Positions 28,618-53,419 of a stretch of DNA of 64,000 nt are shown piece after piece. Both the position numbers and the translations under genes were made by a program. Origin of the DNA: Gammaproteobacteria bacterium (GTDB taxonomy: Bacteria > Pseudomonadota > Gammaproteobacteria > SZUA-152). How positions within the stretch are numbered: the first letter of the stretch is position 1; every line of letters starts with the position of its first letter. The stretch spans positions 54,158 through 118,157 of the forward strand of contig JAKIUN010000002.1 of NCBI GenBank assembly GCA_021647505.1, given 5' to 3'. Under the pieces are notes generated by a model, which did no database searches, was not told where the DNA came from, and saw only the letters and a program-made list of their open reading frames with translations.

Positions 28618-28988
28618 AAAGGAAGCCGGCCTGTAAGCCGGGTTCTGTCGAGAACAGCCATTCATCTGGGCGCCACGTCACCGCGACGCTCGTGCGACCT
28701 ACCCGGGAGCAACGCGGGCCACGCCAATGCTCCCCTATTTGGTCTTGCTCCGGGTGGGGTTTACCCTGCCACCGCTGTTACCAGCGACGCGGTGCGCTCT
28801 TACCACACCTTTTCACCCTTACCTGTGCACCGGTGTGAACACCGGGCCATCGGCGGTCTGTTTTCTGCGGCACTTTCCGTAGGCTCTCGCCTCCCAGGTG
28901 TTACCTGGCACCCTGCCCTTTGGAGCCCGGACTTTCCTCCACATGTCTTGCAGGCAAGACACACAGCGACTGTCCAGCCGACTTCCGC
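28618..28988 (-). ncRNA. rnpB: RNase P RNA (bacterial type A)
   Basis: Reverse complement contains the universal RNase P RNA blocks GGAGGAAAGTCCGGGCTCCA...AGGGCAGGGTGCCAGGTAAC...GGTAAGGGTGAAA.GGTG.GGTAAGAGCGCACC...GGTAAAC.CCACCCGGAGCAAG.CCAAATAGG...ACAGAACCCGGCTTA; the P1 stem pairs GGAAGTCGGCTGG with CAGGCCGGCTTCC; T-run after the 3' end. Confidence 0.85.
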
Positions 28989-29096: not shown

Positions 29097-29396
29097 ATGA
29101 GCGAGAAGAAGAAACGCAAGGTACACAGTGCAGAGTTCAAGGCGAAAGTGGGTCTTGAAGCCCTCAAAGGCGTGAAGACAATCAACGAGATTGGTCAGGC
29201 GTATGGAGTTCACCCCGTGCAGGTGGGTCAGTGGAAGAAGGCTATTCAGGAGCAGGCGAAGAGTCTGTTTGAGGGTAAGCGAGGCCCCAAGCCTGCTGCC
29301 GAACACCGACAGCCAGAGAAGCTGTTTTGCGAGATTGGCAAGCTGAAGATGGAGCTGGACTGGCTGAAAAAAAAGTCCGGGATCAGCCAGCCATGA
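29097..29396 (+). CDS. IS3-family transposase OrfA (HTH subunit)
   Basis: MSEKKKRKVHSAEFKAKVGLEALKGVKTINEIGQAYGVHPVQVGQWKK... characteristic of IS3 OrfA, including leucine-zipper C-terminus. Confidence 0.8.
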   Translation: MSEKKKRKVHSAEFKAKVGLEALKGVKTINEIGQAYGVHPVQVGQWKKAIQEQAKSLFEGKRGPKPAAEHRQPEKLFCEIGKLKMELDWLKKKSGISQP

Positions 29397-29515
29397 AGCG
29401 CTGGTTGTGGATTGAGCGGGAACATGAGATTCCGGTGGTTCGCCACCAATGCGAGTTAACCGGGGTCAAGCCTTACAATTTATACCTTATCAGAAAGAAG
29501 GGGTCAGGTCTTTGA
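29393..29515 (+). pseudogene. truncated IS3-family OrfB (integrase-core subunit) 5' fragment
   Basis: Only the first ~40 codons of orfB remain (…WIEREHEIPVVRHQCELTGVKPYNLYLIRKK…) before a stop; no DDE domain follows. Confidence 0.5.
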
Positions 29516-29682
29516 CTTGTAATCTCTACTCCGATAATCTCTTAGTTCCTGAGAGTCTCACAAGACACCGACATGACCCGCCCGATCATAAATCAAAGAC
29601 CTGACCCTGCATTTCTTTCGCTACGCTCATAAATTTCCGGCGAATTGGAGGCAAGAGGGAGAGTTCCCGCATTGTGGCTATC

Positions 29683-29725
29683 GGTAGGGTGGGCAGGCTT
29701 TTCATGCCCACGTGAAATATGCGCC
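29683..29725. repeat. half-copy (one hairpin unit, 42/43 identical) of the REP/MITE-like repeat family
   Basis: ggtagggtgggcaggcttttcatgcccacgtgaaatatgcgcc is the reverse complement of the second half of the full elements at 55947-56128 and 60040-60211. Confidence 0.7.
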
Positions 29726-29730
29726 TAGCT

Positions 29731-29797
29731 CAGCGGCAGGAATAAGGGGCGCGTATTTTTGCGAGCGCAAAAATCGTGACGCTTATTCCTGCCGCTG
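29731..29797 (-). terminator. long perfect hairpin (16-bp stem cagcggcaggaataag / cttattcctgccgctg, nested inner palindrome) 3' of the parE-like operon
   Basis: Perfect 16-bp inverted repeat with 35-nt loop itself partly palindromic; sits 10 bp downstream of the toxin stop on the minus strand; no obvious U-tract. Confidence 0.35.
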
Positions 29798-29807
29798 GAG
29801 ATTATAG

Positions 29808-30107
29808 TTATCTTTTTTTCAATTTATCCCTTATCCATGCCGGTTTCTTACGACAATCAAGAACAGCATATATAAGCACTGCGTCTTCCTCTATGTAGTA
29901 GTAAACAGAAAATGGAAATCGTTTTGACAGCAAGCGATGATATTTTCCAAAATGTATGGAGTGAATCCCAGCATTGAGAATCAATGAATCTATATCCGAG
30001 AAAAGAGTGTCCAAAAAATACGTACCGATACCCTCGGATTGTTTTTCATAGAACCAGTAGCCATCGATTAAGTCTTGGCTTGCCGATTTAAGTATTTTTA
30101 TCTTCAC
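29808..30107 (-). CDS. type II toxin, RelE/ParE superfamily
   Basis: 99 aa, low GC; ParE/RelE-like fold pattern; 4-bp overlap with upstream small antitoxin gene. Confidence 0.7.
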   Translation of the reverse strand: MKIKILKSASQDLIDGYWFYEKQSEGIGTYFLDTLFSDIDSLILNAGIHSIHFGKYHRLLSKRFPFSVYYYIEEDAVLIYAVLDCRKKPAWIRDKLKKR

Positions 30108-30322
30108 GAGATGTCATTTCTAATATTATTTTTGGCTTCCTCCCAATCAACAAATTGATCCTCTCCCCTCTTTAAGCGCCCTTCTCTTTCATTAAGAATC
30201 TTCTCATGCCATGGAGGAGATGAGAGGCTATCTGCCTTTTTGCATAAATCATCCCAGATGGATTCCATGGCTTGGAGTTTTTCTTCTACAGACATTGTAT
30301 CTAAAGGTAAAGTAACTGCCAT
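30104..30322 (-). CDS. putative addiction-module antitoxin (TIGR02574-like component)
   Basis: 72 aa; MSVEEKLQAMESIWDDL...PPWHEKILNEREGRLKRGEDQFVDWEEAK matches the 'putative addiction module component' family paired with ParE-like toxins. Confidence 0.65.
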   Translation of the reverse strand: MAVTLPLDTMSVEEKLQAMESIWDDLCKKADSLSSPPWHEKILNEREGRLKRGEDQFVDWEEAKNNIRNDIS

Positions 30323-30358
30323 TGTTTTCTCCTATGTTTTTTGTGCAAGATAACGCTT

Positions 30359-30420
30359 CACATCACCGGCAGCAAAAAGCAGAGCGAGGAACGACCGAGA
30401 TTTTTGCTGCCGGTGATGTG
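30359..30420 (-). terminator. perfect 20-bp inverted repeat (cacatcaccggcagcaaaaa / tttttgctgccggtgatgtg) between the 163-aa gene and the TA operon
   Basis: Perfect stem, 22-nt loop; located 26 bp 3' of the 163-aa gene stop and 37 bp upstream of the antitoxin start, so could be terminator and/or operator. Confidence 0.4.
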
Positions 30421-30445
30421 ATTGTTAGCAATATTTATATAGCCA

Positions 30446-30937
30446 TCAGATCTGAATGATTTCGTCTAGTTCTAATTGCCAACTTTTTAACTTATTCTGC
30501 ATTTCTGTTCGGAGTGTCAGTTCGGCCTCTTGTGCTTCCTTAAATACTTTTTTAACTTCTTCAACATCTAGCTCTTCACCTGTTTTGCCCTTGTAAATAA
30601 TCTCCCCGACCTTTGCACTTAAATTATTTATATTTTCTGCAATACTCTTGCACAGATAATGTTGACACTGTTGAGAAATACCAGCTTTTTCAGTAAAGGA
30701 AACCATAGCGTGCCCTATCATTTGCTGCGGTAATATTTCACCAATACCAACATCCATTTTTACTGTGCTAATTTGGTTAAGAGCCGTCTCCACCTTAGAT
30801 ATTTTCTTTTGAAGAATTTCTATCCTAATATTTTTTAAAGCTACTTCATTTTGTCTACGTGACGCTATCAATGTAGCTAAAAAGCTAACAAACGCTCCAA
30901 TAATAACCCCAAAAAAGCCAATAAGTGCAGTGTCCAT
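30446..30937 (-). CDS. hypothetical membrane-anchored coiled-coil protein (163 aa, low GC)
   Basis: N-terminal TM helix (LIGFFGVIIGAFVSFLATLIA) followed by predicted coiled coil; codon usage distinct from core genes; no recognisable family. Confidence 0.5.
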   Translation of the reverse strand: MDTALIGFFGVIIGAFVSFLATLIASRRQNEVALKNIRIEILQKKISKVETALNQISTVKMDVGIGEILPQQMIGHAMVSFTEKAGISQQCQHYLCKSIAENINNLSAKVGEIIYKGKTGEELDVEEVKKVFKEAQEAELTLRTEMQNKLKSWQLELDEIIQI

Positions 30938-31019
30938 ATTTTTCCTATTGCTAACGCTTATTATACGGCTTTTGCCTCGATATCATCGGTTTTGGCGTGG
31001 GCAATGTTCGCCTGTCGAA

Positions 31020-31115: not shown

Positions 31116-32732
31116 TTACTCCCGCTTCAACGAAGACAGGCGCGCGAAACCCTGGCGCTCGGCCGCCGCCAGTTGGCTCTCGTGGATAGTAAAAACATTA
31201 ATCACGCCATCCGGGTCATCGCAGACCTGGAGATAGTCCTTACCGTCGGTGTCTTCCCAGTACTTGGCCACGTCGACACCGGCCTTCGTTAGAATTTTCG
31301 CCATCTCTACTGCGGGCGTCCCGCTGCCAACAGCACACTGCAGCGAATCCTTGTAACGATAAACATCCACCGGGGGGCTGTCGCCGCAACCCACAGTCCA
31401 GTCAGCCACCACCAGCGATCCCTCCAGGGTTTTCACCTGTCCGATGTGGAGCAGCCTCGCCGTATCACGGACGTACACCGCAAAGAGGAAGGGCCGCTGA
31501 TCCGGGGGATAGAAGCAGGAAATGACGGGCGAGTCGGGTGAGTCACCGACACCCGCCGTAATGTTGCCAAGAATGAGGCCGAGAGGCTCATCCTCAGTAG
31601 CGGTATGTACCGCTGCCACCGCCGTGACAGCATTCAACCCTTCCTCCCCCACTTGCAGCTCGATGGACTGGCGCAAAGGCTCCAGGTAGAGAAACCCAGC
31701 ACCATTGACCGGCGTGAAGTCGGCCTGCGCCTCGCTCAGGGCAATGCCTAGGCCGGGCAACATATCATCGACCAACATCCGTTGCAGGGAAAACACTGGC
31801 AGGTCAAGGGTAGTCTGCTCAGGCGCCAGGCCCTCGGTAAGCTGCTGCCAAAATCCAGCATCCAGTCGTCCGCGAACCGTATCGAAGCTGCCAGCCGCCG
31901 GGATGATCACCACCAGCGACAGGCCGTCTTCGGCCAGCGGCACGGCCACCGCCCGGTAGTCCTCGCCCTCGGCCACCGACAGCTCGCCGCCGATGTGCAG
32001 CATGGGCACCCGGCGCTGTTCCTCGTGCTCGCCAAAGCGGCCCTCGAACAGCTCTATCGCCAGATCATCCGACCAGGCAGTCTGCAAGCGGGTGGTCTGG
32101 GCAAGGATCAGGCGGCTGCGCTCGCCGATTTCCTCCAGCGCCAGGCGGTCATCCAACGCATCCTCGATGGCGCTGCGCGCCGAGATGAAGTCATCGCGGA
32201 AGTCCAGCCCGGCCATCTCGGGACCGAACAACTCGGCCTGAGCCTGGAGATAGTCACGATGGAAACGATAACCTTGCTGGCCCCACAATAAACGCTGGCG
32301 TTCGACAGCGTCGAGATCACCGATTCGCTGTTCCCACAGGCTGAGACCGGCCAGAATCTCGGCCCTGACCGAATCCTCCAGTGACGGCCAACCACCGGCG
32401 GTAGCGATGGCCTGCAGGGTCTCGCCCCTGGCGCCAAGGGTAAGGCCAGCCAGGAGCTGCTGCACATCGAAGGGTGCAGTGAGGGTATTTCCCTCACCCG
32501 CACGAAAACGGAAATCGTCGAAGGCAAAGGCCAGATGCACCGCTGCCGGGTCGCTGGCGGCAGCGGCCACCAATGCCTCGGGCGGGGTACGCCGGTCATC
32601 GCCCGGGTAGGATTCAATGGAGACCCTGTCGTCATCGATATCGACCGGCGTGGTGGCCTCCTCGGCACAGGCGGTGAGTAGCATGGCAGCCGTAAGAAGC
32701 CACACGGGTAGCGCTTTTCGTAAGCTCAACAT
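31116..32732 (-). CDS. serpin-family lipoprotein with ~100-aa C-terminal extension
   Basis: Lipobox (LLTAC) after signal peptide; serpin N-terminal block (N.L.APF.V..LL.GL.LGARGETL..I); reactive-centre-loop hinge (EEGLNAVTAVAAVHTA); C-terminal serpin motif (DQRPFLFAVYVRDTARLLHIGQV). ATG at 32732 chosen over the upstream TTG. Confidence 0.6.
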   Translation of the reverse strand: MLSLRKALPVWLLTAAMLLTACAEEATTPVDIDDDRVSIESYPGDDRRTPPEALVAAAASDPAAVHLAFAFDDFRFRAGEGNTLTAPFDVQQLLAGLTLGARGETLQAIATAGGWPSLEDSVRAEILAGLSLWEQRIGDLDAVERQRLLWGQQGYRFHRDYLQAQAELFGPEMAGLDFRDDFISARSAIEDALDDRLALEEIGERSRLILAQTTRLQTAWSDDLAIELFEGRFGEHEEQRRVPMLHIGGELSVAEGEDYRAVAVPLAEDGLSLVVIIPAAGSFDTVRGRLDAGFWQQLTEGLAPEQTTLDLPVFSLQRMLVDDMLPGLGIALSEAQADFTPVNGAGFLYLEPLRQSIELQVGEEGLNAVTAVAAVHTATEDEPLGLILGNITAGVGDSPDSPVISCFYPPDQRPFLFAVYVRDTARLLHIGQVKTLEGSLVVADWTVGCGDSPPVDVYRYKDSLQCAVGSGTPAVEMAKILTKAGVDVAKYWEDTDGKDYLQVCDDPDGVINVFTIHESQLAAAERQGFARLSSLKRE

Positions 32733-33114
32733 CCCTTTAATTCCTTTCAAGATCAACAATACTCAACAACCACCGGCTAAAGCTGGTGGGTTAGTTTTAC
32801 GGACTGAAAGTCATAATACGGGTTTAATCCGGCCCGGCAATGGCCATCAAAACACCGTGTAGGATGCCTGTGCCAACCGTAGATGCATTAAGCGAGCCTG
32901 CAAACCACATTGGTCGAGAACGATACCCCCTCACAATGACCAGCACGCAATCTCACACGAACGATGCGGTTCACTACCGCTCATCAGCATCCTACACGAA
33001 TGACCCAAGTGCCTTTCCATAGATAATATTCCCAAACCGACTCATGTGTGCCTTGCAATACGCTTCCCTCAGGTTTAAAAAGGGATTTAAGCCCTTGCCC
33101 CAAGGAGCACGATT

Positions 33115-36157: not shown

Positions 36158-36286
36158 TGGTGATGCGCCCTGAAATCCAGACCAGCCACCGGATGACTTG
36201 TCCAGCGCCCGGTGGGCAATGCCCACCCTACAAATCTTGCCTCCACCCCGGTAGGAGCGGGCCATGCCCGCTAAACAGCTCTTTCT

Positions 36287-36427: not shown

Positions 36428-37627
36428 ATGCTCACCCGTGACCTCGTCCGTCTCTCCTTTTCCTCCATCGTCGCCCACCGCCTGCGCAGCCTGCTCACGG
36501 TGCTGGGCATCAGCGTCGGTATTGGTGCAGTCGTTCTTCTCACCTCCATCGGCGAGGGCATCCACAAGTTCGTGCTCAGTGAATTCACCCAGTTCGGCAC
36601 CACCCTGATCGGCATTAACCCGGGCAAAGCCACCACCTTCGGCACCTCGCTGGGCATCATGGGCACGGTACGACCACTGAGCATCGACGACGCCGAGGCC
36701 CTGCGGCGAGTACCACACACCCGCGCCGTGGTAGCCGCCACCCAGGGTAATGCCGAGGTCAAGGCCGGTGCAAAAACCCGCCGCACCACCGTCTATGGCA
36801 TGGGGGCGGACATGCCCGTCGCCTTTTCCATGAAAGTGCAACTGGGCCAGTTCCTGCCTCACGACGACCCGCGTTCACCACGCGCCTTTGCGGTACTGGG
36901 CAGCAAGCTGAAAACAGAACTGTTCGGCACGGAAAACCCGCTGGGCAAAAAGATCCGTATCGGCGGCGACCGCTACCGGGTCATCGGCGTAATGGAGAGC
37001 AAAGGCCAGGTGCTGGGCATGGATCTGGACGACACAGTTTACATTCCCGCCGCGCGCGCACTGGAGATGTTCAACCGCACCAGCCTGATGGAAGTGGATC
37101 TGCTCTACGAGGAAGGCGCAGACGTGGATGAAGTGGTCGCCAGTATCAAGCGCATCCTTATCAACCGCCACGGCCGCGAAGACTTCACCATCACCACCCA
37201 GCAACAAATGATGGACGTGCTGGGCAACGTCCTGAATGTACTGACCTTCGCCGTCGGTGCCCTGGGCAGCATCTCCCTGCTGGTGGGCGGCATCGGCATC
37301 CTCACCATCATGACCATCGCGGTAAAGGAACGCACCAGTGAAATCGGCTTGCTGCGCGCCCTGGGTGCGGAGCGTGGGCAGATCCTGCTGCTGTTCCTCG
37401 GCGAGGCAGCGGTATTGGCCGCCATCGGCGGTATCGCCGGGCTGATCCTCGGCGTCGGCGGCGCACAGCTGTTGAGCCTCGCCCTGCCCGCCCTACCGGT
37501 GCACACACCCTGGTCTTATGTGCTGGCGGCGGAGGCTGTGGCCATTCTCATCGGCTTTGCCGCCGGTGTACTGCCCGCCCGGCGGGCGGCGGCGATGGAT
37601 CCGGTGGAGGCATTGCGGACAGAGTAA
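36428..37627 (+). CDS. ABC transporter permease, FtsX/MacB-LolC/E family (permease 2)
   Basis: Paralogous to permease 1; start reset to MLTRDLVRLSFSS (the upstream ORF extension is intergenic). Confidence 0.8.
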   Translation: MLTRDLVRLSFSSIVAHRLRSLLTVLGISVGIGAVVLLTSIGEGIHKFVLSEFTQFGTTLIGINPGKATTFGTSLGIMGTVRPLSIDDAEALRRVPHTRAVVAATQGNAEVKAGAKTRRTTVYGMGADMPVAFSMKVQLGQFLPHDDPRSPRAFAVLGSKLKTELFGTENPLGKKIRIGGDRYRVIGVMESKGQVLGMDLDDTVYIPAARALEMFNRTSLMEVDLLYEEGADVDEVVASIKRILINRHGREDFTITTQQQMMDVLGNVLNVLTFAVGALGSISLLVGGIGILTIMTIAVKERTSEIGLLRALGAERGQILLLFLGEAAVLAAIGGIAGLILGVGGAQLLSLALPALPVHTPWSYVLAAEAVAILIGFAAGVLPARRAAAMDPVEALRTE

Positions 37628-37642
37628 CGGCTTCTTCAGAGA

Positions 37643-38482
37643 TTAAATAAACACCTTCAACACATCCGAAAACTCCGGCGTACGCAGATAGCCGTAGGAC
37701 TTGTGGTTGAGGCCACCCCAGTCATTCATCACCAGATCATCCTTGACCCTCACGCCAGCGTAGTTTTTTTCGTAGTCGTCACTCAGGTGGATATCCAGTG
37801 CAACGGGATCGCGGCGGTCGGCAAAATTGGTCCAATTTTTTACGATACTGGGCGTGCGAATAATCGGGCTTTCTTTGAGAATCATGTGTTTGACATGCGG
37901 CAGACCGAGCGGTGAGCCAATGGTCACGAAATGCTCGACCGACAAGGTCGGATCTTCACGGCCCAGTTCACGCAATACGTCATAGGCAATAATGGAGCCC
38001 ATAGAGTGCGCCACCAGCATCAGGCGCTTGTCACGATTTTCGGTAATAACTTGTGTCAGACGGCCGCGTAACGCCTTGCGTATTTCCTCTTCTTTGTAAT
38101 AGCGATATAAGTCCGGCAATTTTTCCTTCAGTACTTTTTCCGCCGTTTTATCCATATCCAGTTTATCTTTCATGAAATCCAGGAAGTCACCTCCCATATC
38201 CAAGACTCGCGAACGTACATAATCTATCCAGCCATCTTTGTAATATTTTAAATCACCGCTTTTGGCCCCACGATAGGCATCCGGTTTGGGGTCAGGGCTT
38301 GGATACATCACATCCGCCCAGTGAACGGATAAAAAATCCAGCGATTCGACTGGCAGACGACTGTTTTTCTTCAGCCCTTCGAGCATCGATTGCTCCCACC
38401 ACGCCGCCAAGGTTTCCTTTTCCGGCTTGTTGGCCAAGCCATGCACACCAATGATCAACTTGCTCGATTTATTTGAACTCAT
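37643..38482 (-). CDS. alpha/beta-hydrolase-fold protein (lipase/esterase-like, GxSxG = AHSMGS), lower-GC
   Basis: LIIGVHGL oxyanion-hole-like N-terminus, nucleophile elbow VAHSMGS, Lys/Glu-rich composition atypical for this genome. Confidence 0.6.
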   Translation of the reverse strand: MSSNKSSKLIIGVHGLANKPEKETLAAWWEQSMLEGLKKNSRLPVESLDFLSVHWADVMYPSPDPKPDAYRGAKSGDLKYYKDGWIDYVRSRVLDMGGDFLDFMKDKLDMDKTAEKVLKEKLPDLYRYYKEEEIRKALRGRLTQVITENRDKRLMLVAHSMGSIIAYDVLRELGREDPTLSVEHFVTIGSPLGLPHVKHMILKESPIIRTPSIVKNWTNFADRRDPVALDIHLSDDYEKNYAGVRVKDDLVMNDWGGLNHKSYGYLRTPEFSDVLKVFI

Positions 38483-38588
38483 TTTCTCTCTCTCCCTTTG
38501 ATTTATTTTGTCGGACGATGCTACCGCTACGACAAATAGGATGCAAAGGATGGGTCGAAAATCAGAGACAAATGGTCATATCACACTT

Positions 38589-38611
38589 TGTGTGTGTGTG
38601 GGGGGGGGGGG
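38589..38611. repeat. simple-sequence tract (GT)5-6 followed by G12 homopolymer in the hydrolase promoter region
   Basis: tgtgtgtgtgtgggggggggggg read directly; located 107-129 bp upstream of the hydrolase start on its template. Confidence 0.9.
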
Positions 38612-38649
38612 AATGCAGATGATAAGGGCCGTGCTATGTCCGGGGGGAG

Positions 38650-39435
38650 TTAAATGGCCGCTGCGACTTCCCGCAGCCGCTGAAGCTGTGATTCCCTACG
38701 CATGACATCCTTCATGGCCCTTTTGAAAAAGGGGCGCAAGGTGGATTTCAGGTGTTTTACCGCCTCACGGGCCGGGATGTTTTTCAGGCAACAGAAGATC
38801 GCCAGTGCATAGGTCACATCAAACTGGGACAGGTAGTTTTCACGTTCGACGGCCGGCCCGGAACAGCTGCCGCAGGATCGAATCCTGGCGGTATTGGCGC
38901 TGTCCGCCATGACCACGCCGAAGCCCATGAACACGGCCAGCAGCTCCGTCACATGAGGCCAGTTTTCTTCGCCGCCGGGCGGGGGCTCGTTGGCCGTGGT
39001 GCCGAGATAGTGGGCCAGGGTATGTGCGAAGTGGGCGATCATGACCTCCGGATCGCGTAGCTGATCCGCACGATAGATGATCGGCAGGGGTTGCGCCGCC
39101 TCCACCGCAATGGGCATCGCTCCCTCCATCGCCCGGACCAGGCCTGCAACCGGCAGGATCCGGAGCGGCAACTCCTCCACGACATCCTCATCCACCAGTT
39201 GACAGGGCCAGTGTTGCATGCTGGCAAAAAACCTGACCCTGTCGAAGATCAATCCGCTCATGCCCTCGGGGCTGGATTCCCGGCCGGGAAAATGTGCGTT
39301 GCTGGGCGTCACCAGGATCGTCTCGTCACGGAAGATCCGTGCATCGAAGTTGCGTAGCGCCCAGGCGAAGCTGTCGAACATCCATTGCACAGTGGCTTCA
39401 TCGAGCAGCTGGGTTGGTTTCAGAAACGGGAACAA
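38650..39435 (-). CDS. hypothetical protein (261 aa)
   Basis: Long ORF with genome-typical GC and codon usage, no recognisable motifs; co-directional and immediately upstream of the hydrolase. Confidence 0.45.
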   Translation of the reverse strand: MFPFLKPTQLLDEATVQWMFDSFAWALRNFDARIFRDETILVTPSNAHFPGRESSPEGMSGLIFDRVRFFASMQHWPCQLVDEDVVEELPLRILPVAGLVRAMEGAMPIAVEAAQPLPIIYRADQLRDPEVMIAHFAHTLAHYLGTTANEPPPGGEENWPHVTELLAVFMGFGVVMADSANTARIRSCGSCSGPAVERENYLSQFDVTYALAIFCCLKNIPAREAVKHLKSTLRPFFKRAMKDVMRRESQLQRLREVAAAI

Positions 39436-39882
39436 GGCATCGCCTCCATGTGGTGAAAGGGCTTGGGGAAGGTCTGCGAAAAAACGGACATGCTGTAGAT
39501 CATACGGGAAGTTTATCCCGGATTCCGCTGCATTTCATCCAGGCTACGGCACCGGCCAGCCACTCGTTGTAGGTGTGCTCCATCAGATCACTGGTGATCG
39601 CTTGTATGGAAAAGGCTCTCGTCCCGAGTCACTGGTCAAGGCGACACAGCCATCCACAGGCCGAAAAATACCGCAATAACACACTGTCACCGGTACAGCA
39701 TTTTCGTTACATTTTTTCCAGTCAGCGATATCGGCGGCAGCGGTATTTTTTCATCTCATTAGGATGCCGAAAGTTTGCTAGACTCTCAGACTCAGGGTAT
39801 GACCGGAGGGGAGGGCGGTAGCAATGCTGCGTAGCCTTCATGTCGCTCCGGTATTTAGTTCGCATTTTCAAGGAAATACACA

Positions 39883-40164
39883 ATGAACAGGAAAGTCATT
39901 GCCCTGGCGGTACTGCTCAGTGTCGCAACGCCTTTGATCAGCCATGCAGGATCGATAAGATCCGCAGAAGAAAATAGGGTGGCGGAGATCGGGCTTGTTG
40001 CCGGGACAGGCCAGGACAGCGTCTTTGAAGAGATCGAGAGCAGCACACTGGAAAAAACGGCCGTCTCTGCGGCGGCTGGGGCTGCCATCGGCTCGGTCTG
40101 GCCGGGCCCCGGCACCGCCATTGGCTTTGTGGTCGGCGGTATCTACGGATTTTTCTTCCGTTAA
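39883..40164 (+). CDS. small secreted protein with C-terminal glycine-zipper hydrophobic segment (93 aa)
   Basis: Signal peptide MNRKVIALAVLLSVATPLISHA; C-terminus AAAGAAIGSVWPGPGTAIGFVVGGIYGFFF (GxxxG repeats). Confidence 0.5.
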   Translation: MNRKVIALAVLLSVATPLISHAGSIRSAEENRVAEIGLVAGTGQDSVFEEIESSTLEKTAVSAAAGAAIGSVWPGPGTAIGFVVGGIYGFFFR

Positions 40165-40194
40165 CCCTCTCTCCTTTCCTTTACAGGGCACAGC

Positions 40195-40944
40195 ATGAAC
40201 ATCAGTTCCCGCTTCAGCGAATTCGGCATGACGGGCGCATTTTTCTGGATTGCGCAGATCATCTATTTCACCCTTGTGCACGACACAGAATTACAACAAC
40301 TGACGCCAGGCTGGATCGCATCACTCAACCACTATCAAACCCTCACCGAGGCCCTGCCACAGACCTTCAAGGACGTCGCCGGTTCCCTGCTTACAGCCTT
40401 TGGCCTCATCGGCATCTTCGTCACCGGCTTGATATTGAATCTGCTCGGTTCCTATTTTTTCCTCTTCGAGGACATCTACCTCAATCGTCACCTGAAAAAA
40501 AACCACGACTGGCTGGACAAGATGGTCAATGCATGCCCTGGTGCCGTCCATGACGACTATTTCAAATTACGCGAAGAATTCGGCGCCAATATTTTCGTTT
40601 CCGCCCGCCAGGGCCTCAAACGCCTTCAGCTCACCGGCTGTTGTACGAGGATGCAGTCTTTCCTGTTTTCCTATATCCATGTCTTCAGCGGCAACGGCTC
40701 ACCAGAAGTACTCAGCGACCATGTGCACCTGTGGCGCACCGCGCGCGCCATCGGCATTACCTTTTGGGTGCTCAGCATCGAGATTCTGATATTTGGCCTA
40801 CATGGCTCGGAATGGATAGCCATACTGCTGGCCCTACTCCTGTTCCTGGTAGCCATTTACACCACGCTGCGTTCCTACAACCGCATGTGCCACACGCTGT
40901 TTACTCTGGCTTGCGCCACCTACAGCAAGCAGCAGGACAAGTGA
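40195..40944 (+). CDS. hypothetical polytopic membrane protein (249 aa)
   Basis: Several predicted TM helices; 30 bp downstream of the small secreted protein gene, likely co-transcribed. Confidence 0.5.
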   Translation: MNISSRFSEFGMTGAFFWIAQIIYFTLVHDTELQQLTPGWIASLNHYQTLTEALPQTFKDVAGSLLTAFGLIGIFVTGLILNLLGSYFFLFEDIYLNRHLKKNHDWLDKMVNACPGAVHDDYFKLREEFGANIFVSARQGLKRLQLTGCCTRMQSFLFSYIHVFSGNGSPEVLSDHVHLWRTARAIGITFWVLSIEILIFGLHGSEWIAILLALLLFLVAIYTTLRSYNRMCHTLFTLACATYSKQQDK

Positions 40945-41072: not shown

Positions 41073-41312
41073 TTATGGTTTTTTACATGAGCCCCCTATC
41101 ATCTTTTCATTTCTATGCTTTCCTACCGTCGTTGCAAAATAACCATCTGTCCAAAACTCACCACCCCATAACAGCTTCTTTACATGTGGACACTTCTTGA
41201 ATACCTCTCGAGCGGTTAAGGTCTTGATCATGGCCACTAATTTCACAACACTATACGTCGGTACTACTGAACTAAAAATGAACGTGGTCTTTATCCGTAC
41301 CAATTTCCACAA
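41073..41312 (-). pseudogene. IS200/IS605-family (REP-associated tyrosine transposase-like) TnpA fragment
   Basis: …VVPTYSVVKLVAMIKTLTAREVFKKCPHVKKLLWGGEFWTDGYFATTVGKHRNEKMI… matches the C-terminal half of IS200-like TnpA (PK.SVS..V..IKG.TAR..F...P..KK.LWGG.FWS.GYF..TVG); N-terminal HUH half and true C-terminus missing. Confidence 0.55.
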
Positions 41313-49392: not shown

Positions 49393-50564
49393 TGCGAAAT
49401 ACCAGAGAAACACTGACTCGACAATATAGAGTGGTTGCTGCACTAGGGTGTTCCCTGTTGCTGCTGGCCTGGCTAACGCCGGCTGCGGCTGCGGCCTGCC
49501 CGCCCTGGCCTTTGTGGCAAAGCTTCCAGTATCATTTGCTGAGCGAAGATGGCAGAGTGATCGACTACCATACTCCCGCGCAGCATTCCACTTCCGAGGG
49601 GCAGTCCTATGCACTGTTCATGGCGCTGGTAAACAATGACCAGAAGCTTTTCGACCTGCTGCTGCGCTGGACCGAGAACAACCTCGCACACGGCAGTCTC
49701 GAAGCCCATTTGCCTGCCTGGCAGTGGGGACGCAAGAAAGATGGCGACTGGGGAGTGATCGATACCAACAGCGCCAGCGATGCAGACCTCTGGATAGCAT
49801 ACGGCCTGGCCGAGGCAGGACGCCTCTGGCGCAGACCAGACCTGACGAAAATGGCCAAATCCCTGGCCAGGCGCATCCTGAAGGAGGAAAGCCAACGCCT
49901 GCCCGGCCTGGGATTGATGCTGCTTCCTGGGATCCGGGGGTTTGCCCTGCAAGCGGGGCGCTGGCGCCTCAACCCCAGCTATCTACCACTACAATTGCTG
50001 CGGCGGATGGAGACATTGCAACCAGGCGCAGGCTGGCGGGAAATACTGGAAAACACGGTTACCATGCTGCACGCCAGCGGTAACGGCTTCATCCCAGACT
50101 GGATCATCTATGATGCCCGGCTTGGCTTCCTTCCCGATGAGGTGCATGGCGCCAGTGGCAGCTATGGCGCCATTCGCAACTATTTGTGGGTTGGAATGCT
50201 CTCACCGGACGAACCCCTGCGGCTGCCGCTACTACAGCTTATGCGCCCCATGGCGGAACGGGTGAAACAACTCGGTGCCCCTCCCCGTAACATCAATACC
50301 AAAACCGGGCAATCCAGCGGTCTTGGATCGCCCGGGTTCTCCGCATCCCTGATGCCACTGCTGAAAGCCCTGAAGTACCCCCAGGAACTCGCACTGCTAC
50401 AAGGCCAGACACAGCGGATTCTGCAACATCCGAACCACTATTATGATCAGGTTCTGGCGCTATTTGCCTTGGGTTGGATGGAAGGACGCTACCAATTCGG
50501 CCGCGATGGCAGGCTGCAACCCCTCTGGAAGTCATCATGTACGGAAAACTCAAGTCATTCCTGA
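49389..50564 (+). CDS. bcsZ: endo-1,4-beta-glucanase BcsZ (glycoside hydrolase family 8)
   Basis: Signal peptide then GH8 core (SEGQSYALFMALV, DADLWIAYGL); start reset to MMRNTRE (RBS GGAGAAAGGAG upstream) rather than ORF-tool start inside bcsB. Confidence 0.85.
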   Translation: MMRNTRETLTRQYRVVAALGCSLLLLAWLTPAAAAACPPWPLWQSFQYHLLSEDGRVIDYHTPAQHSTSEGQSYALFMALVNNDQKLFDLLLRWTENNLAHGSLEAHLPAWQWGRKKDGDWGVIDTNSASDADLWIAYGLAEAGRLWRRPDLTKMAKSLARRILKEESQRLPGLGLMLLPGIRGFALQAGRWRLNPSYLPLQLLRRMETLQPGAGWREILENTVTMLHASGNGFIPDWIIYDARLGFLPDEVHGASGSYGAIRNYLWVGMLSPDEPLRLPLLQLMRPMAERVKQLGAPPRNINTKTGQSSGLGSPGFSASLMPLLKALKYPQELALLQGQTQRILQHPNHYYDQVLALFALGWMEGRYQFGRDGRLQPLWKSSCTENSSHS

Positions 50565-53419
50565 TACTGCTGCTCGCCGGTACTAGCCCTTGCTTTGGAG
50601 ACAGCAACGTTTTTTCCACACTGTTGGAACGGGCGGAATTCTGGCACTCCCTTGGCCGCAATGACTTTGCCGGGCAGGCGCTGAAAAAAGCCATACGAGC
50701 CGAACCGGATAATCCTGCCGGCTTGGTGTTGCAAGCTTTTTTGGATCTTGATCTGGACAGACGCCCGGCGGCCGAGAAGCTGCTCCAGCAGCTGCGACAA
50801 CACCATCCTAAAGCCCCCCAGACCATGGTGTTGGAACAAGTACTGGATATCACCGGCCGGAGCAGAACACAGCTCCACAAGGCACGCCTGGCGGTGCGTC
50901 TGGGCAGGCGGCAGGAAGCGCTGCAAGTTTTTCGTCAGCTGTTCGCGGGAACCCCGCACCCCTCTCCGCTGGCGTTAGAGTACTGGGGGCTCCTGGGACG
51001 ACAGGCAGTCCACCGGGAAGAGGCCATGAAAGGTTTGCAAACACTGGTGCGCACCTATCCCGGCAATCTGCGCTACCGGATGGCGCTGGCCCGGCAACTG
51101 GCCAGAAAAGATCCTCCTGCGCCTGAAAGTATCGAAACTTTCATCGAACTCAGTCAGTACTCCCAACTCCGCCGCGAAGCCAGGTCAGCCTGGCGCAACG
51201 CCGTCCTGGCGCTGCCGGCAGAGCATGATGCTCTACCGGCACTGCGGCAATACATCGAACAGGCCCCAAAAGACAGCGGTGTAGCACAGCGAATCCAGAA
51301 AATCGAGTCTGCGATCATTGCCCAAAAGAAACGGGATCGCGATCCCGTGCATGCAGGCTTGTTGCGCGGCATAACACTCATGGAAAAAGGCCGTCTGGAT
51401 GCCGCCGATCCACTGCTGGGGGCCGCCGTCAAAAAATGGCCCGGGGAGGTAAGGCCCGTAGGCGCCATAGGACGGTTACGGCTGAAACAGGCTCGTTACC
51501 GCGAAGCTATTTCCTGGTTCCAGCGGGCGCTGGAACTGGAACCGGACAATGCCAGCAAATGGCGCTCCCTGTTGCATGCCGCAAACTACTGGGGATTCAT
51601 CAAACAGGCGAAGTCGGCGCTACAACGAGGTGATTTGCACCAGGCGGATGCAATATCACGCAAGGCCGTCGCGCTCGATGCGCAAGAAGCGTATGGCATC
51701 GCTCTGCTCGCCCAGGTACAGTCGCAACTAAAAGACACCCATGAAGCAGAGCGGCTTTATCGCCAAGCACTGACCGTTGACCCGCAAAGTAGCACGGCAC
51801 TGCGTGGGTTGATCAATCTTTATGCCGATAATCAGCGTCTGGATGATGCATTTGCATTGCTTGATGAGCTGACATCCTCTCAGCAGCAGACACTGGGGAA
51901 ATCCTACACGACACTGCGGGCCTCTCTGCTGCAAAAACAAGCCGATCAGCATCTCCGGGACGGCGCCCCGGAGATGGCAATCACCGCCTTGCGGCAGGCC
52001 GTTGACTTCGATCCGGAGAATCCCTGGCTGCGCTTTGATCTGGCTGATCTGCTGCTGGTGGGAAACGAGATGGAACAGGCTGTCGAGGTGTTCGAGACGG
52101 GCCTCGCCCTCGCGCCACAGAATCCGCAAATGCGCTATGCCTATGCATTGCTGCTTTCCCGCCTGGGCAGGGAAACGGACGCACTGGAAATACTGGATGA
52201 ACTGCCGAGTAACCAGCTGCCGCCAAACGTACTGGCCTACCGCAATCGCCTGCAACACAAGCAGCAGATACAGCAAAGTCCCAGGCTTTTCTCCGGACTA
52301 CATATGAGGTTCCGCGATGCAACCGGAGGGCTTTCCAGCCTGACGTCCCATGAACTGCCCATAGAGGCACAGTGGCCATTGTACCAAGGACAAATGTTCG
52401 CACATGTTGCCCCCGTACACCTGGATGCAGGCAAACTTGACTTGGGCAACCCGGATATCCGGAGCCTTTTTGGCGCAGGCGCCTTGTGCCTGAAAAACTG
52501 CGCTGACTCACCACTGGTGCAGATAGAGAGAGGCACATCCTTTGCTATCGGATACCGAGATATCAACTGGCGTGCAGATCTGGGCCACTCACCTTTAGGC
52601 TTTCCCATTTCCCACCTGCTTGGGGGTGTGGAAATCGATGGCGACCTGCGGGGTGTTAGCTGGAGCCTGGGACTCTCCCAGCGACCGGTCACCAGCACTC
52701 TACTGAGTTATGCCGGCATGGAGGATGCGGAAACCGGCAAGGTCTGGGGGGGGGTTGTTGCCACTGGCCTGCATCTCGGACTCAGCGGGGATCAAGGTGA
52801 TTCATACGGGTTCTGGGGCAGTTTTGGTATTCATAACCTGCACGGGGAAGGGGTTGCTGACAACTTTCGGTTGCGGGCTTTGAGCGGCATTTACTGGCGT
52901 TTACTCAACCGGGAGAATACCCAGCTGCGTGGCGGATTAAACATAATGGCCTTGCGTTTTGACAAAAACATGGGTGAGTTCACTATCGGTCACGGCGGTT
53001 ACTATAGTCCCCAGTCCTATGTTTCGCTTTCACTGCCGATGAGTTTTTATGGGCGCAGGGATCGCTGGTCATGGGAGTTACGCGGCTCAGTTTCCTACTC
53101 GGTTTCCCACTTCGACCGCAGCCCCTACTTTCCTGAAGCCCCGAGTCTACAGGCCAAAGCCGAACGGCTGGAAGCAATAACCGGGATCACGCCATATTAT
53201 GGTGCCTACACCAGCTCCGGCGCTAGCTACTCCTTCAGTGGAGCGGTGGAATATCGGCTCAATCCCCACCTGCATATGGGCACGAAAATGAAGATCGAAC
53301 GCGCCGACTTTTATGCGCCAGACCACTTCCTTCTCTACTTCCGCTACAGCGCCCACCCCCACCTGGGTCCAATGCCCTTGCATCCGCGTCCGACAGTCCC
53401 TTATTCCGACGTTAACTGA
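50537..53419 (+). CDS. bcsC: cellulose synthase operon protein BcsC (TPR periplasmic scaffold + C-terminal outer-membrane beta-barrel)
   Basis: Signal peptide MYGKLKSFLILLLAGTSPCFG, multiple TPR repeats, C-terminal BcsC barrel region (GGYYSPQSYVSLSLPMSFYGRRDRW); shorter than E. coli BcsC (fewer TPRs). Confidence 0.85.
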   Translation: MYGKLKSFLILLLAGTSPCFGDSNVFSTLLERAEFWHSLGRNDFAGQALKKAIRAEPDNPAGLVLQAFLDLDLDRRPAAEKLLQQLRQHHPKAPQTMVLEQVLDITGRSRTQLHKARLAVRLGRRQEALQVFRQLFAGTPHPSPLALEYWGLLGRQAVHREEAMKGLQTLVRTYPGNLRYRMALARQLARKDPPAPESIETFIELSQYSQLRREARSAWRNAVLALPAEHDALPALRQYIEQAPKDSGVAQRIQKIESAIIAQKKRDRDPVHAGLLRGITLMEKGRLDAADPLLGAAVKKWPGEVRPVGAIGRLRLKQARYREAISWFQRALELEPDNASKWRSLLHAANYWGFIKQAKSALQRGDLHQADAISRKAVALDAQEAYGIALLAQVQSQLKDTHEAERLYRQALTVDPQSSTALRGLINLYADNQRLDDAFALLDELTSSQQQTLGKSYTTLRASLLQKQADQHLRDGAPEMAITALRQAVDFDPENPWLRFDLADLLLVGNEMEQAVEVFETGLALAPQNPQMRYAYALLLSRLGRETDALEILDELPSNQLPPNVLAYRNRLQHKQQIQQSPRLFSGLHMRFRDATGGLSSLTSHELPIEAQWPLYQGQMFAHVAPVHLDAGKLDLGNPDIRSLFGAGALCLKNCADSPLVQIERGTSFAIGYRDINWRADLGHSPLGFPISHLLGGVEIDGDLRGVSWSLGLSQRPVTSTLLSYAGMEDAETGKVWGGVVATGLHLGLSGDQGDSYGFWGSFGIHNLHGEGVADNFRLRALSGIYWRLLNRENTQLRGGLNIMALRFDKNMGEFTIGHGGYYSPQSYVSLSLPMSFYGRRDRWSWELRGSVSYSVSHFDRSPYFPEAPSLQAKAERLEAITGITPYYGAYTSSGASYSFSGAVEYRLNPHLHMGTKMKIERADFYAPDHFLLYFRYSAHPHLGPMPLHPRPTVPYSDVN

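Follow-up and report, generated by a model that had tools for sequence, protein, structure and literature searches.

The 12-nt homopolymeric G run located upstream of an alpha/beta-hydrolase gene is most likely a hypermutable but neutral, or nearly neutral, microsatellite rather than an ON/OFF switch of gene expression; we assign this interpretation a probability of roughly 0.6. The tract lies upstream of all conserved elements that precede the hydrolase and is, therefore, most likely a microsatellite of this kind, and its length probably has no effect on hydrolase expression. All coordinates refer to the window, i.e., the whole analyzed stretch of 64,000 nucleotides.

In the scenario that we propose, an ancestral interrupted C/A-rich stretch (CCCCATCCACC-ACAC...) would have lost its interruptions in a single strain lineage, the host being an uncultured gammaproteobacterium of marine origin. 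The resulting pure run of 11 nt would have become prone to slipped-strand mispairing, and this would have produced the difference between 11 and 12 nt that is seen today. The tract occupies a dispensable, length-variable linker between the stop codon of the upstream gene (orf261) and the control region of the hydrolase, in which a conserved block, a predicted TTGCAT-17-TAGCAT promoter, and a Shine-Dalgarno sequence follow each other in this order, all of them downstream of the tract.

The initial annotation had described the tract as a candidate phase-variation switch. The tract is indeed real and probably slippery; however, the promoter-spacing mechanism, the recent import of the hydrolase gene, and the opa and pilC precedents were not borne out, and the pure tract is not conserved in relatives. 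What the analysis offers is chiefly a lesson in method: the presence of a long homopolymer close to a gene start does not suffice to call phase variation, and here the phylogenetic footprint locates a predicted promoter, with the tract falling outside. As a by-product, the footprint yields a conserved predicted promoter and operator architecture for a widespread family of DUF900/lipase-like hydrolases. Were the tract a working switch, it would widen the range of simple-sequence contingency regulation, both to metabolic enzymes and to gammaproteobacteria that are environmental rather than pathogenic, and the locus would have been caught at its origin, with the interrupted ancestral allele still present in the same species.

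The tract and its genomic setting

On the forward strand, positions 38589-38611 read TGTGTGTGTGTGGGGGGGGGGGG, i.e., a T(GT)5 dinucleotide repeat (38589-38599) followed by a G12 homopolymer (38600-38611), in agreement with the letters and coordinates annotated initially. The dinucleotide part can also be counted as (TG)6 by taking in the first G of the homopolymer. On the strand of the flanking genes, the tract is C12(AC)5 and lies 107-129 nt upstream of the hydrolase ATG (the annotated distance was about 110-130 bp); relative to the predicted transcription start, C12 is found at about -89 to -100 and (AC)5 at about -79 to -88. The tract is located in a 167-nt gap between two minus-strand genes, the 261-aa orf261 and the 279-aa hydrolase, and the G12 run is separated by 38 nt from the orf261 stop codon (38650). 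The stretch immediately upstream of the tract is TTATCATCTGCATT (38612..38625, minus strand).

The G12 run is the sole homopolymer longer than 9 nt in the 64-kb window, the next longest being a G9. The observed count of G10 matches was reached in 4 of 100 dinucleotide-preserving shuffles. Across 627 kb of related loci, one G8 is the only other G/C run of at least 8 nt, aside from the copy of the tract in the closest relative. The tract is, as had been claimed, unusual for such a genome; the value of 63% GC given for the host fits the flanking genes (60-63%), whereas the window as a whole has 58.3% GC. With G12 plus (GT)5, the tract has the length at which slipped-strand mispairing becomes frequent (about 8 nt or more for G/C). 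The G9 run (52746-52754), the second-longest G/C homopolymer of the window, lies within the coding sequence of a BcsC-like cellulose-synthase operon protein (ORF 50474-53419; Pfam BCSC_C, E = 5e-108), and a slip of +/-1 nt at this run would truncate the protein.

The hydrolase gene (37643..38482, minus strand, ATG at 38482) encodes a 279-aa DUF900/lipase-like alpha/beta-hydrolase. Its match to Pfam DUF900 has 26.5 bits (cut-off 20.5), with weaker matches to LCAT, PGAP1, and DUF676; it carries an invariant H-S-M-G nucleophile elbow and is similar to the PDB entry 7x2p, a 'putative lipase' (E = 4e-4). The lipase-like label thus holds at the family level, on matches that are weak. The family is large, with 3265 matches at E <= 1e-5, and the named homologues belong mostly to marine sulfur-oxidising and related gammaproteobacteria. 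The N-terminus, MSSNKSSKLIIGVHGL, is followed at once by the first strand and its HG oxyanion motif, and no N-terminal signal peptide or hydrophobic signal sequence was seen by inspection alone. The product is apparently cytoplasmic, unlike typical products of contingency genes, which tend to be, but need not be, exposed at the surface, secreted, or otherwise turned to the environment.

The upstream neighbor on the same strand, orf261 (38650..39435), is a conserved ORF without a match in the family search, which is syntenic in relatives at 78-100% identity. The gene order orf261-hydrolase-macB-macB is found in every relative whose hydrolase is at least 82% identical. The GC content of the hydrolase gene is, as originally noted, lower than that of the flanks (48.7% vs 60-63%), and this deficit is common to all syntenic relatives. 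Given the conserved synteny and the clade-wide GC deficit, the hydrolase is not a recent import, contrary to the original description of a horizontally acquired, foreign gene. Judging from these comparisons, it is an old resident of the clade; any transfer is old as well and has no bearing on how the tract arose.

There is no mobile element adjoining the hydrolase gene. The nearest one, 2.5 kb from the tract, is an IS200-like Y1 transposase fragment of 79 aa (41073-41312, minus strand), which is located in a 40%-GC stretch between a 249-aa membrane-protein gene and bcsG. Several other features of the window are worth recording. The gene for a bacterial class A RNase P RNA (28618-28985, minus strand; 330 bits vs a gathering score of 100) is neighbored by a segment (29097-30950) that starts with an insertion-sequence OrfA remnant (HTH_Tnp_1) ending near an A8 run (29367-29374). 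The remnant is followed by a low-GC (37-39%) islet that is flanked by palindromic REP-like elements and contains ORFs for a weak ParE-like toxin (29808-30107) and an 'addiction module' antitoxin (30104-30322). A 547-aa ORF (31116-32759, minus strand) has a serpin domain (Pfam Serpin, E = 1e-27); serpins are uncommon in bacteria.

Alleles in close relatives

The pure tract is represented by two sequences, both of them consensus sequences of metagenome-assembled genomes ('Gammaproteobacteria bacterium' MAGs): the window and L001 (GCA_021648705.1). L001 is 99.8% identical to the window over 6.8 kb and has C11 in place of C12. The two sequences differ by five SNPs and two indels in these 6.8 kb, and both indels are in repeats, one being the tract (11 vs 12) and the other a 6-bp repeat unit at 36185. 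The latter unit, GACCAC, is a near-duplicate of the adjacent GACCAG and lies in the gap between two MacB-type permease genes. Exact-protein look-ups with the hydrolase, with the TTG and M-start versions of orf261, and with the 249-aa neighbor returned only GCA_021648705.1; a metagenome scan with the flanks of the tract and a variable gap re-found only L004 (see below); and the nearest relative in a scan of the genome collection was at 86%, with none closer.

Five sequences from four other assemblies or sequencing runs (L002-L006), which are 97-98.4% identical at the nucleotide level and therefore conspecific, have the interrupted CCCCATCCACC instead of the pure run, the rest of the intergenic region being nearly identical. 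Their alleles can be written as CCCCATCCAC(C) followed by a variable (AC)n, with a total tract length of 19-21 nt, compared to 21-22 nt in the pure-tract lineage. Since five conspecific sequences carry the interrupted version, the pure run is very young and confined to its lineage. The pure tract is likewise missing from every syntenic relative at a greater distance; in L008, the homologous position holds a C7 run, which suggests that a C run beside the conserved block described below may be recurrent.

Length variation is not restricted to the C run. The number of AC units and a G interruption vary among the conspecific strains, and whole-unit differences between these strains are seen both in (AC)n and in the (GA)n of the ribosome-binding site. 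For example, L004 is one AC unit (a 2-nt gap) apart from L005 and L006 at 99.4% identity, whereas the interrupted alleles are identical inside the near-identical pairs L002/L003 and L005/L006. The difference between 11 and 12 nt is likely to be the result of biological slippage, and the length of the tract is probably unstable. The initial claim that the tract is prone to slippage agrees with its length, with the 11 nt of L001, and with the variation of (AC)n and (GA)n by whole units.

An alternative explanation is that the tract is an artefact of sequencing or assembly: the 11 vs 12 difference would be a consensus error, or a true GTGGTGGATGGGG would have been misread as a series of G's owing to G-biased, sequence-specific Illumina errors. 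Indel error rates are raised in long G runs, and GGT-to-GGG is a known systematic error of Illumina sequencing; such errors are strand-specific and rarely win the consensus. Both MAGs with the pure tract are in a neighboring accession series, probably from one project and one platform, and the interrupted form is seen in each of the five sequences that come from other datasets. Moreover, the pure and the interrupted alleles are equal in length in L001 and L005 (21 nt), as substitution-type errors would produce. However, three errors would need to win the consensus, against the reads of the other strand, in two separate assemblies, which the five SNPs elsewhere mark as distinct populations, and both flanks are perfectly colinear with those of the relatives, as would not be the case for poly-G at a contig end. 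We consider an artefact quite unlikely, and an error that accounts for the whole pure run is less likely than a consensus error in the 11 vs 12 comparison. It should be noted that homopolymers at the ends of MAG contigs can be artefacts: the L009 contig (CAJVYS010000126.1) has, at positions 11-40, a T15 followed by CAAGCAGAAGACGGC at the contig start, which looks like a remnant of the Illumina P7 adapter.

The transition from the L005 allele to the L001 allele consists of three changes to C within 5 nt and one G-to-A change, with the length unchanged. Compared to the background divergence of 1.3-1.8%, this is a clear excess: the probability of at least 3 changes in 21 positions is about 0.003-0.006 in this post-hoc test. 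The clustering of the three substitutions, all of which create C, could point to selection for a pure tract rather than to chance. If so, the locus might be seen at the birth of a contingency system in a free-living bacterium, in which three A/T-to-C substitutions, possibly selected, gave rise to a slipping C11/C12 run that, 3 nt away from a helically phased regulator site, tunes the hydrolase gradually and heritably via DNA structure rather than promoter spacing; we regard this as very unlikely.

The region upstream of the hydrolase

The upstream regions of eight lineages (the window, L008, L009, L010, L011, L017, L089, and L090) were aligned to obtain a phylogenetic footprint. The predicted -35 hexamer TTGCAT (38541..38546, minus strand) is part of CTTTGCATCC, which is invariant in all eight lineages. 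The predicted -10 hexamer TAGCAT (38518..38523, minus strand) is within G(T/G)TAGCATC, invariant across the lineages as well. The spacer between the hexamers is exactly 17 nt in all eight, its sequence being variable, and TAGCAT is followed by the ATG at a distance of 33-35 nt, with the Shine-Dalgarno sequence in between. This pattern of conservation suggests that TTGCAT-17-TAGCAT is an active sigma-70-type promoter of the hydrolase, with a predicted transcription start near 38511. A promoter consensus scan of positions 37500-40300 yielded no matches; it missed the conserved promoter because TTGCAT fits only three of the six positions of the -35 consensus. The Shine-Dalgarno sequence GGGAGAGAGAG (38485..38496, minus strand) includes (GA)5, which is (GA)4 in L002 and L003, where the distance to the ATG is shorter by 2 nt. 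There are, in total, three separate simple-sequence repeats, C12, (AC)5, and (GA)5, within 130 nt upstream of this one gene.

The only other conserved cis-element is the block GTGnnATATGACCA (38573..38586, minus strand), which is centered near -68 and is a candidate regulator-binding site; its ATGAC is invariant in alignment A2. In the order of the lineages given above, the distance between the block and the -35 hexamer is 35, 24, 35, 35, 35, 45, 46, and 46 nt, i.e., 24 nt in L008, 45-46 nt in L017, L089, and L090, and 35 nt in the others. The distances thus change by one helical turn at a time, as would be anticipated if a bound regulator had to keep to the same side of the DNA, and the block is a candidate site for such a regulator. 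The extra 10 nt in L017, L089, and L090 make a small GC hairpin.

The tract, at about -79 to -100, is upstream of the promoter, the Shine-Dalgarno sequence, and the block; it is 43 nt upstream of the predicted -35 hexamer and 3 nt from the block, on its distal side. Therefore, a 1-nt change of tract length alters no conserved spacing, and the classical promoter-spacing mechanism that had been proposed, with the tract in the promoter, is unsupported. In spacing switches such as Bordetella fim, Neisseria porA and opc, or hif, tract length sets a functional distance, the tract being in the -35/-10 interval or in the interval between an activator site and the core promoter; here, the predicted promoter (38546..38518) and the block (38586..38573) are both on the same side of the tract, and a switch of this type is not supported. 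A -35/-10 pair that spans the tract was found neither by reading the sequence nor by the consensus scan. With a spacer of 17 nt, the -35 candidates upstream of the tract (TTATCA and CTGCAT) would have to pair with CCCACA or ACACAC, and a -10 element at GATATG would require a -35 element inside the C run.

The segment upstream of the block is not conserved. The orf261 stop codon and the block are separated by about 11 nt in L009 but by several hundred nt in both L089 and L090. In L090 (560-1300), orf261 and the hydrolase have come to lie about 900 nt apart, with REP-like palindromes (GTAGGGTGGGCACCGCCCAC...) in between, which indicates that this segment tolerates insertions. A partly recurring motif, TCATCTGCA, is present upstream of the tract, 29-41 nt from the block and unphased; TCATCTG(C/T)A, from the TTATCATCTGCATT stretch, is also found in L017 and L090, its distance from the block (29-41 nt, hand-counted) being variable.

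The tract might still act as a contingency element of a graded type: slippage in the C run would shift the angular position or the DNA structure upstream of the block and would vary hydrolase expression in the population in a heritable and reversible manner, or, in a variant of this explanation, would alter read-through from orf261. The tract differs in length (11 vs 12) between two 99.8%-identical assemblies, was purified by directional, clustered substitutions, and is 3 nt from a conserved, helically phased block; the crowding of the three repeats into 130 nt and the C7 run at the same place in L008 also fit, and precedents for tracts upstream of a -35 element are sabA (PMC4081817) and the homopolymer of bhuR (PMC1891110). 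However, the tract is separated from the -35 hexamer by 43 nt and is distal to the conserved block, so that the phased element GTGnnATATGACCA falls between the tract and the promoter, whereas TCATCTGCA, the sole partly conserved motif on the other side, is unphased. Furthermore, the linker is nearly missing in L009, conspecific strains manage without the pure tract, the product looks cytoplasmic, and there is no second candidate contingency tract in a promoter within the 64 kb. We, therefore, regard a graded contingency element as unlikely.

The tract could also act on the upstream gene. The C-rich, G-poor transcript that follows the orf261 stop codon might be a Rho-loading (rut-like) site, or an insulator, which ends orf261 transcription before the hydrolase promoter, the homopolymer being an extreme form of the C-rich compositional requirement. 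In the 40-nt windows that start at 38640 and 38630, the transcript has 20-22 C vs 3-5 G; an excess of C over G is likewise present in the interrupted conspecific alleles, and no intrinsic terminator is predicted in the intergenic region between orf261 and the hydrolase. This evidence is purely compositional, however; a perfect homopolymer is not accounted for by rut function, and since the stop codon and the block are only about 11 nt apart in L009, no such region is conserved. We consider this explanation highly improbable.

Several other readings of the region were rejected. A sigma-54 promoter with TTGCAT as the -12 element would need a GG at -24, which, on inspection, neither the window nor L009 has; a CRP-like site at TGTGA is missing its second half-site, also on inspection; and the elements of a sigma-E/ECF promoter, via TCTGA or GACC...CGAC, are missing in L008. 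A translational switch in the 65-aa forward-strand ORF that contains the tract (38508-38705) is not plausible either: the ORF is frameshifted in L001 (-1 nt) and overlaps the hydrolase promoter, the conservation pattern of which is not codon-like. The Rfam search of the tract region returned only noise (E > 7), its RNA fold was insignificant (z = -1.06), and nothing in the comparative data calls for a role of G-quadruplexes or Z-DNA. The RNA results are consistent with the nearly neutral microsatellite that we favor.

Comparison with known systems

Neisseria opa (CTCTT repeats) and pilC (G tract), to which the tract had been likened, are switches that act through frameshifts in the coding region and are not precedents for promoter spacing. 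In Neisseria meningitidis porA, opc, and fetA, promoter homopolymers of G or C, 9-14 nt in length and variable by slippage, are inside the -35/-10 spacer or overlap it. The tract analyzed here is a G/C homopolymer of the same slippage-prone length class; however, it is outside the spacer.

The C-stretch in the fim2/fim3/fimX promoters of Bordetella pertussis (Willems 1990; Gogol 2007, PMC1891110) is a true promoter case, as had been claimed, and it shares several features with the tract: (i) the poly-C (about 7-22 nt in fim) is on the gene strand, upstream of the gene, in a GC-rich proteobacterium; (ii) its length is polymorphic between strains (here, 12 vs 11 nt in two consensus sequences); and (iii) interrupted versions occur in relatives. 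In the Bordetella survey, pure tracts of one species are interrupted in sister species (C6TC3, C9TC8; PMC1891110), whereas the interrupted CCCCATCCACC is found here in conspecific strains. The differences concern position and product. The C-stretch of fim is between the activator site and the -10 element (PMC1891110), whereas the run analyzed here is 43 nt above the predicted -35 hexamer, beyond the conserved upstream block, and fim encodes surface fimbriae, whereas the gene here encodes an apparently cytoplasmic hydrolase.

Tracts upstream of the -35 element can tune promoters via DNA shape, e.g., the T-tract of H. pylori sabA (PMC4081817). This 'rheostat' abuts the -35 element and stands between the core promoter and A-box UP-like elements (Aberg 2014, PMC4081817); in Bordetella, the bhuR homopolymer is 5 nt upstream of the bhuR -35 element (PMC1891110). 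As in sabA, the homopolymer analyzed here is outside the -35/-10 spacer and could act only via DNA shape or axial alignment, with a graded rather than an ON/OFF effect. Unlike in sabA, it consists of G/C rather than A/T, is about 43 nt further upstream, and has nothing phased or conserved upstream of it.

The tract also resembles an ordinary intergenic microsatellite to which no function is assigned: it is lineage-specific, is not found in close relatives, lies in an unconserved linker of variable length, and differs by unit-length indels between strains. It departs from an ordinary microsatellite in that a pure 12-nt G/C run is, in these genomes, far rarer than usual (one G8 in 627 kb of related loci) and in that the tract arose via an unusual cluster of substitutions.
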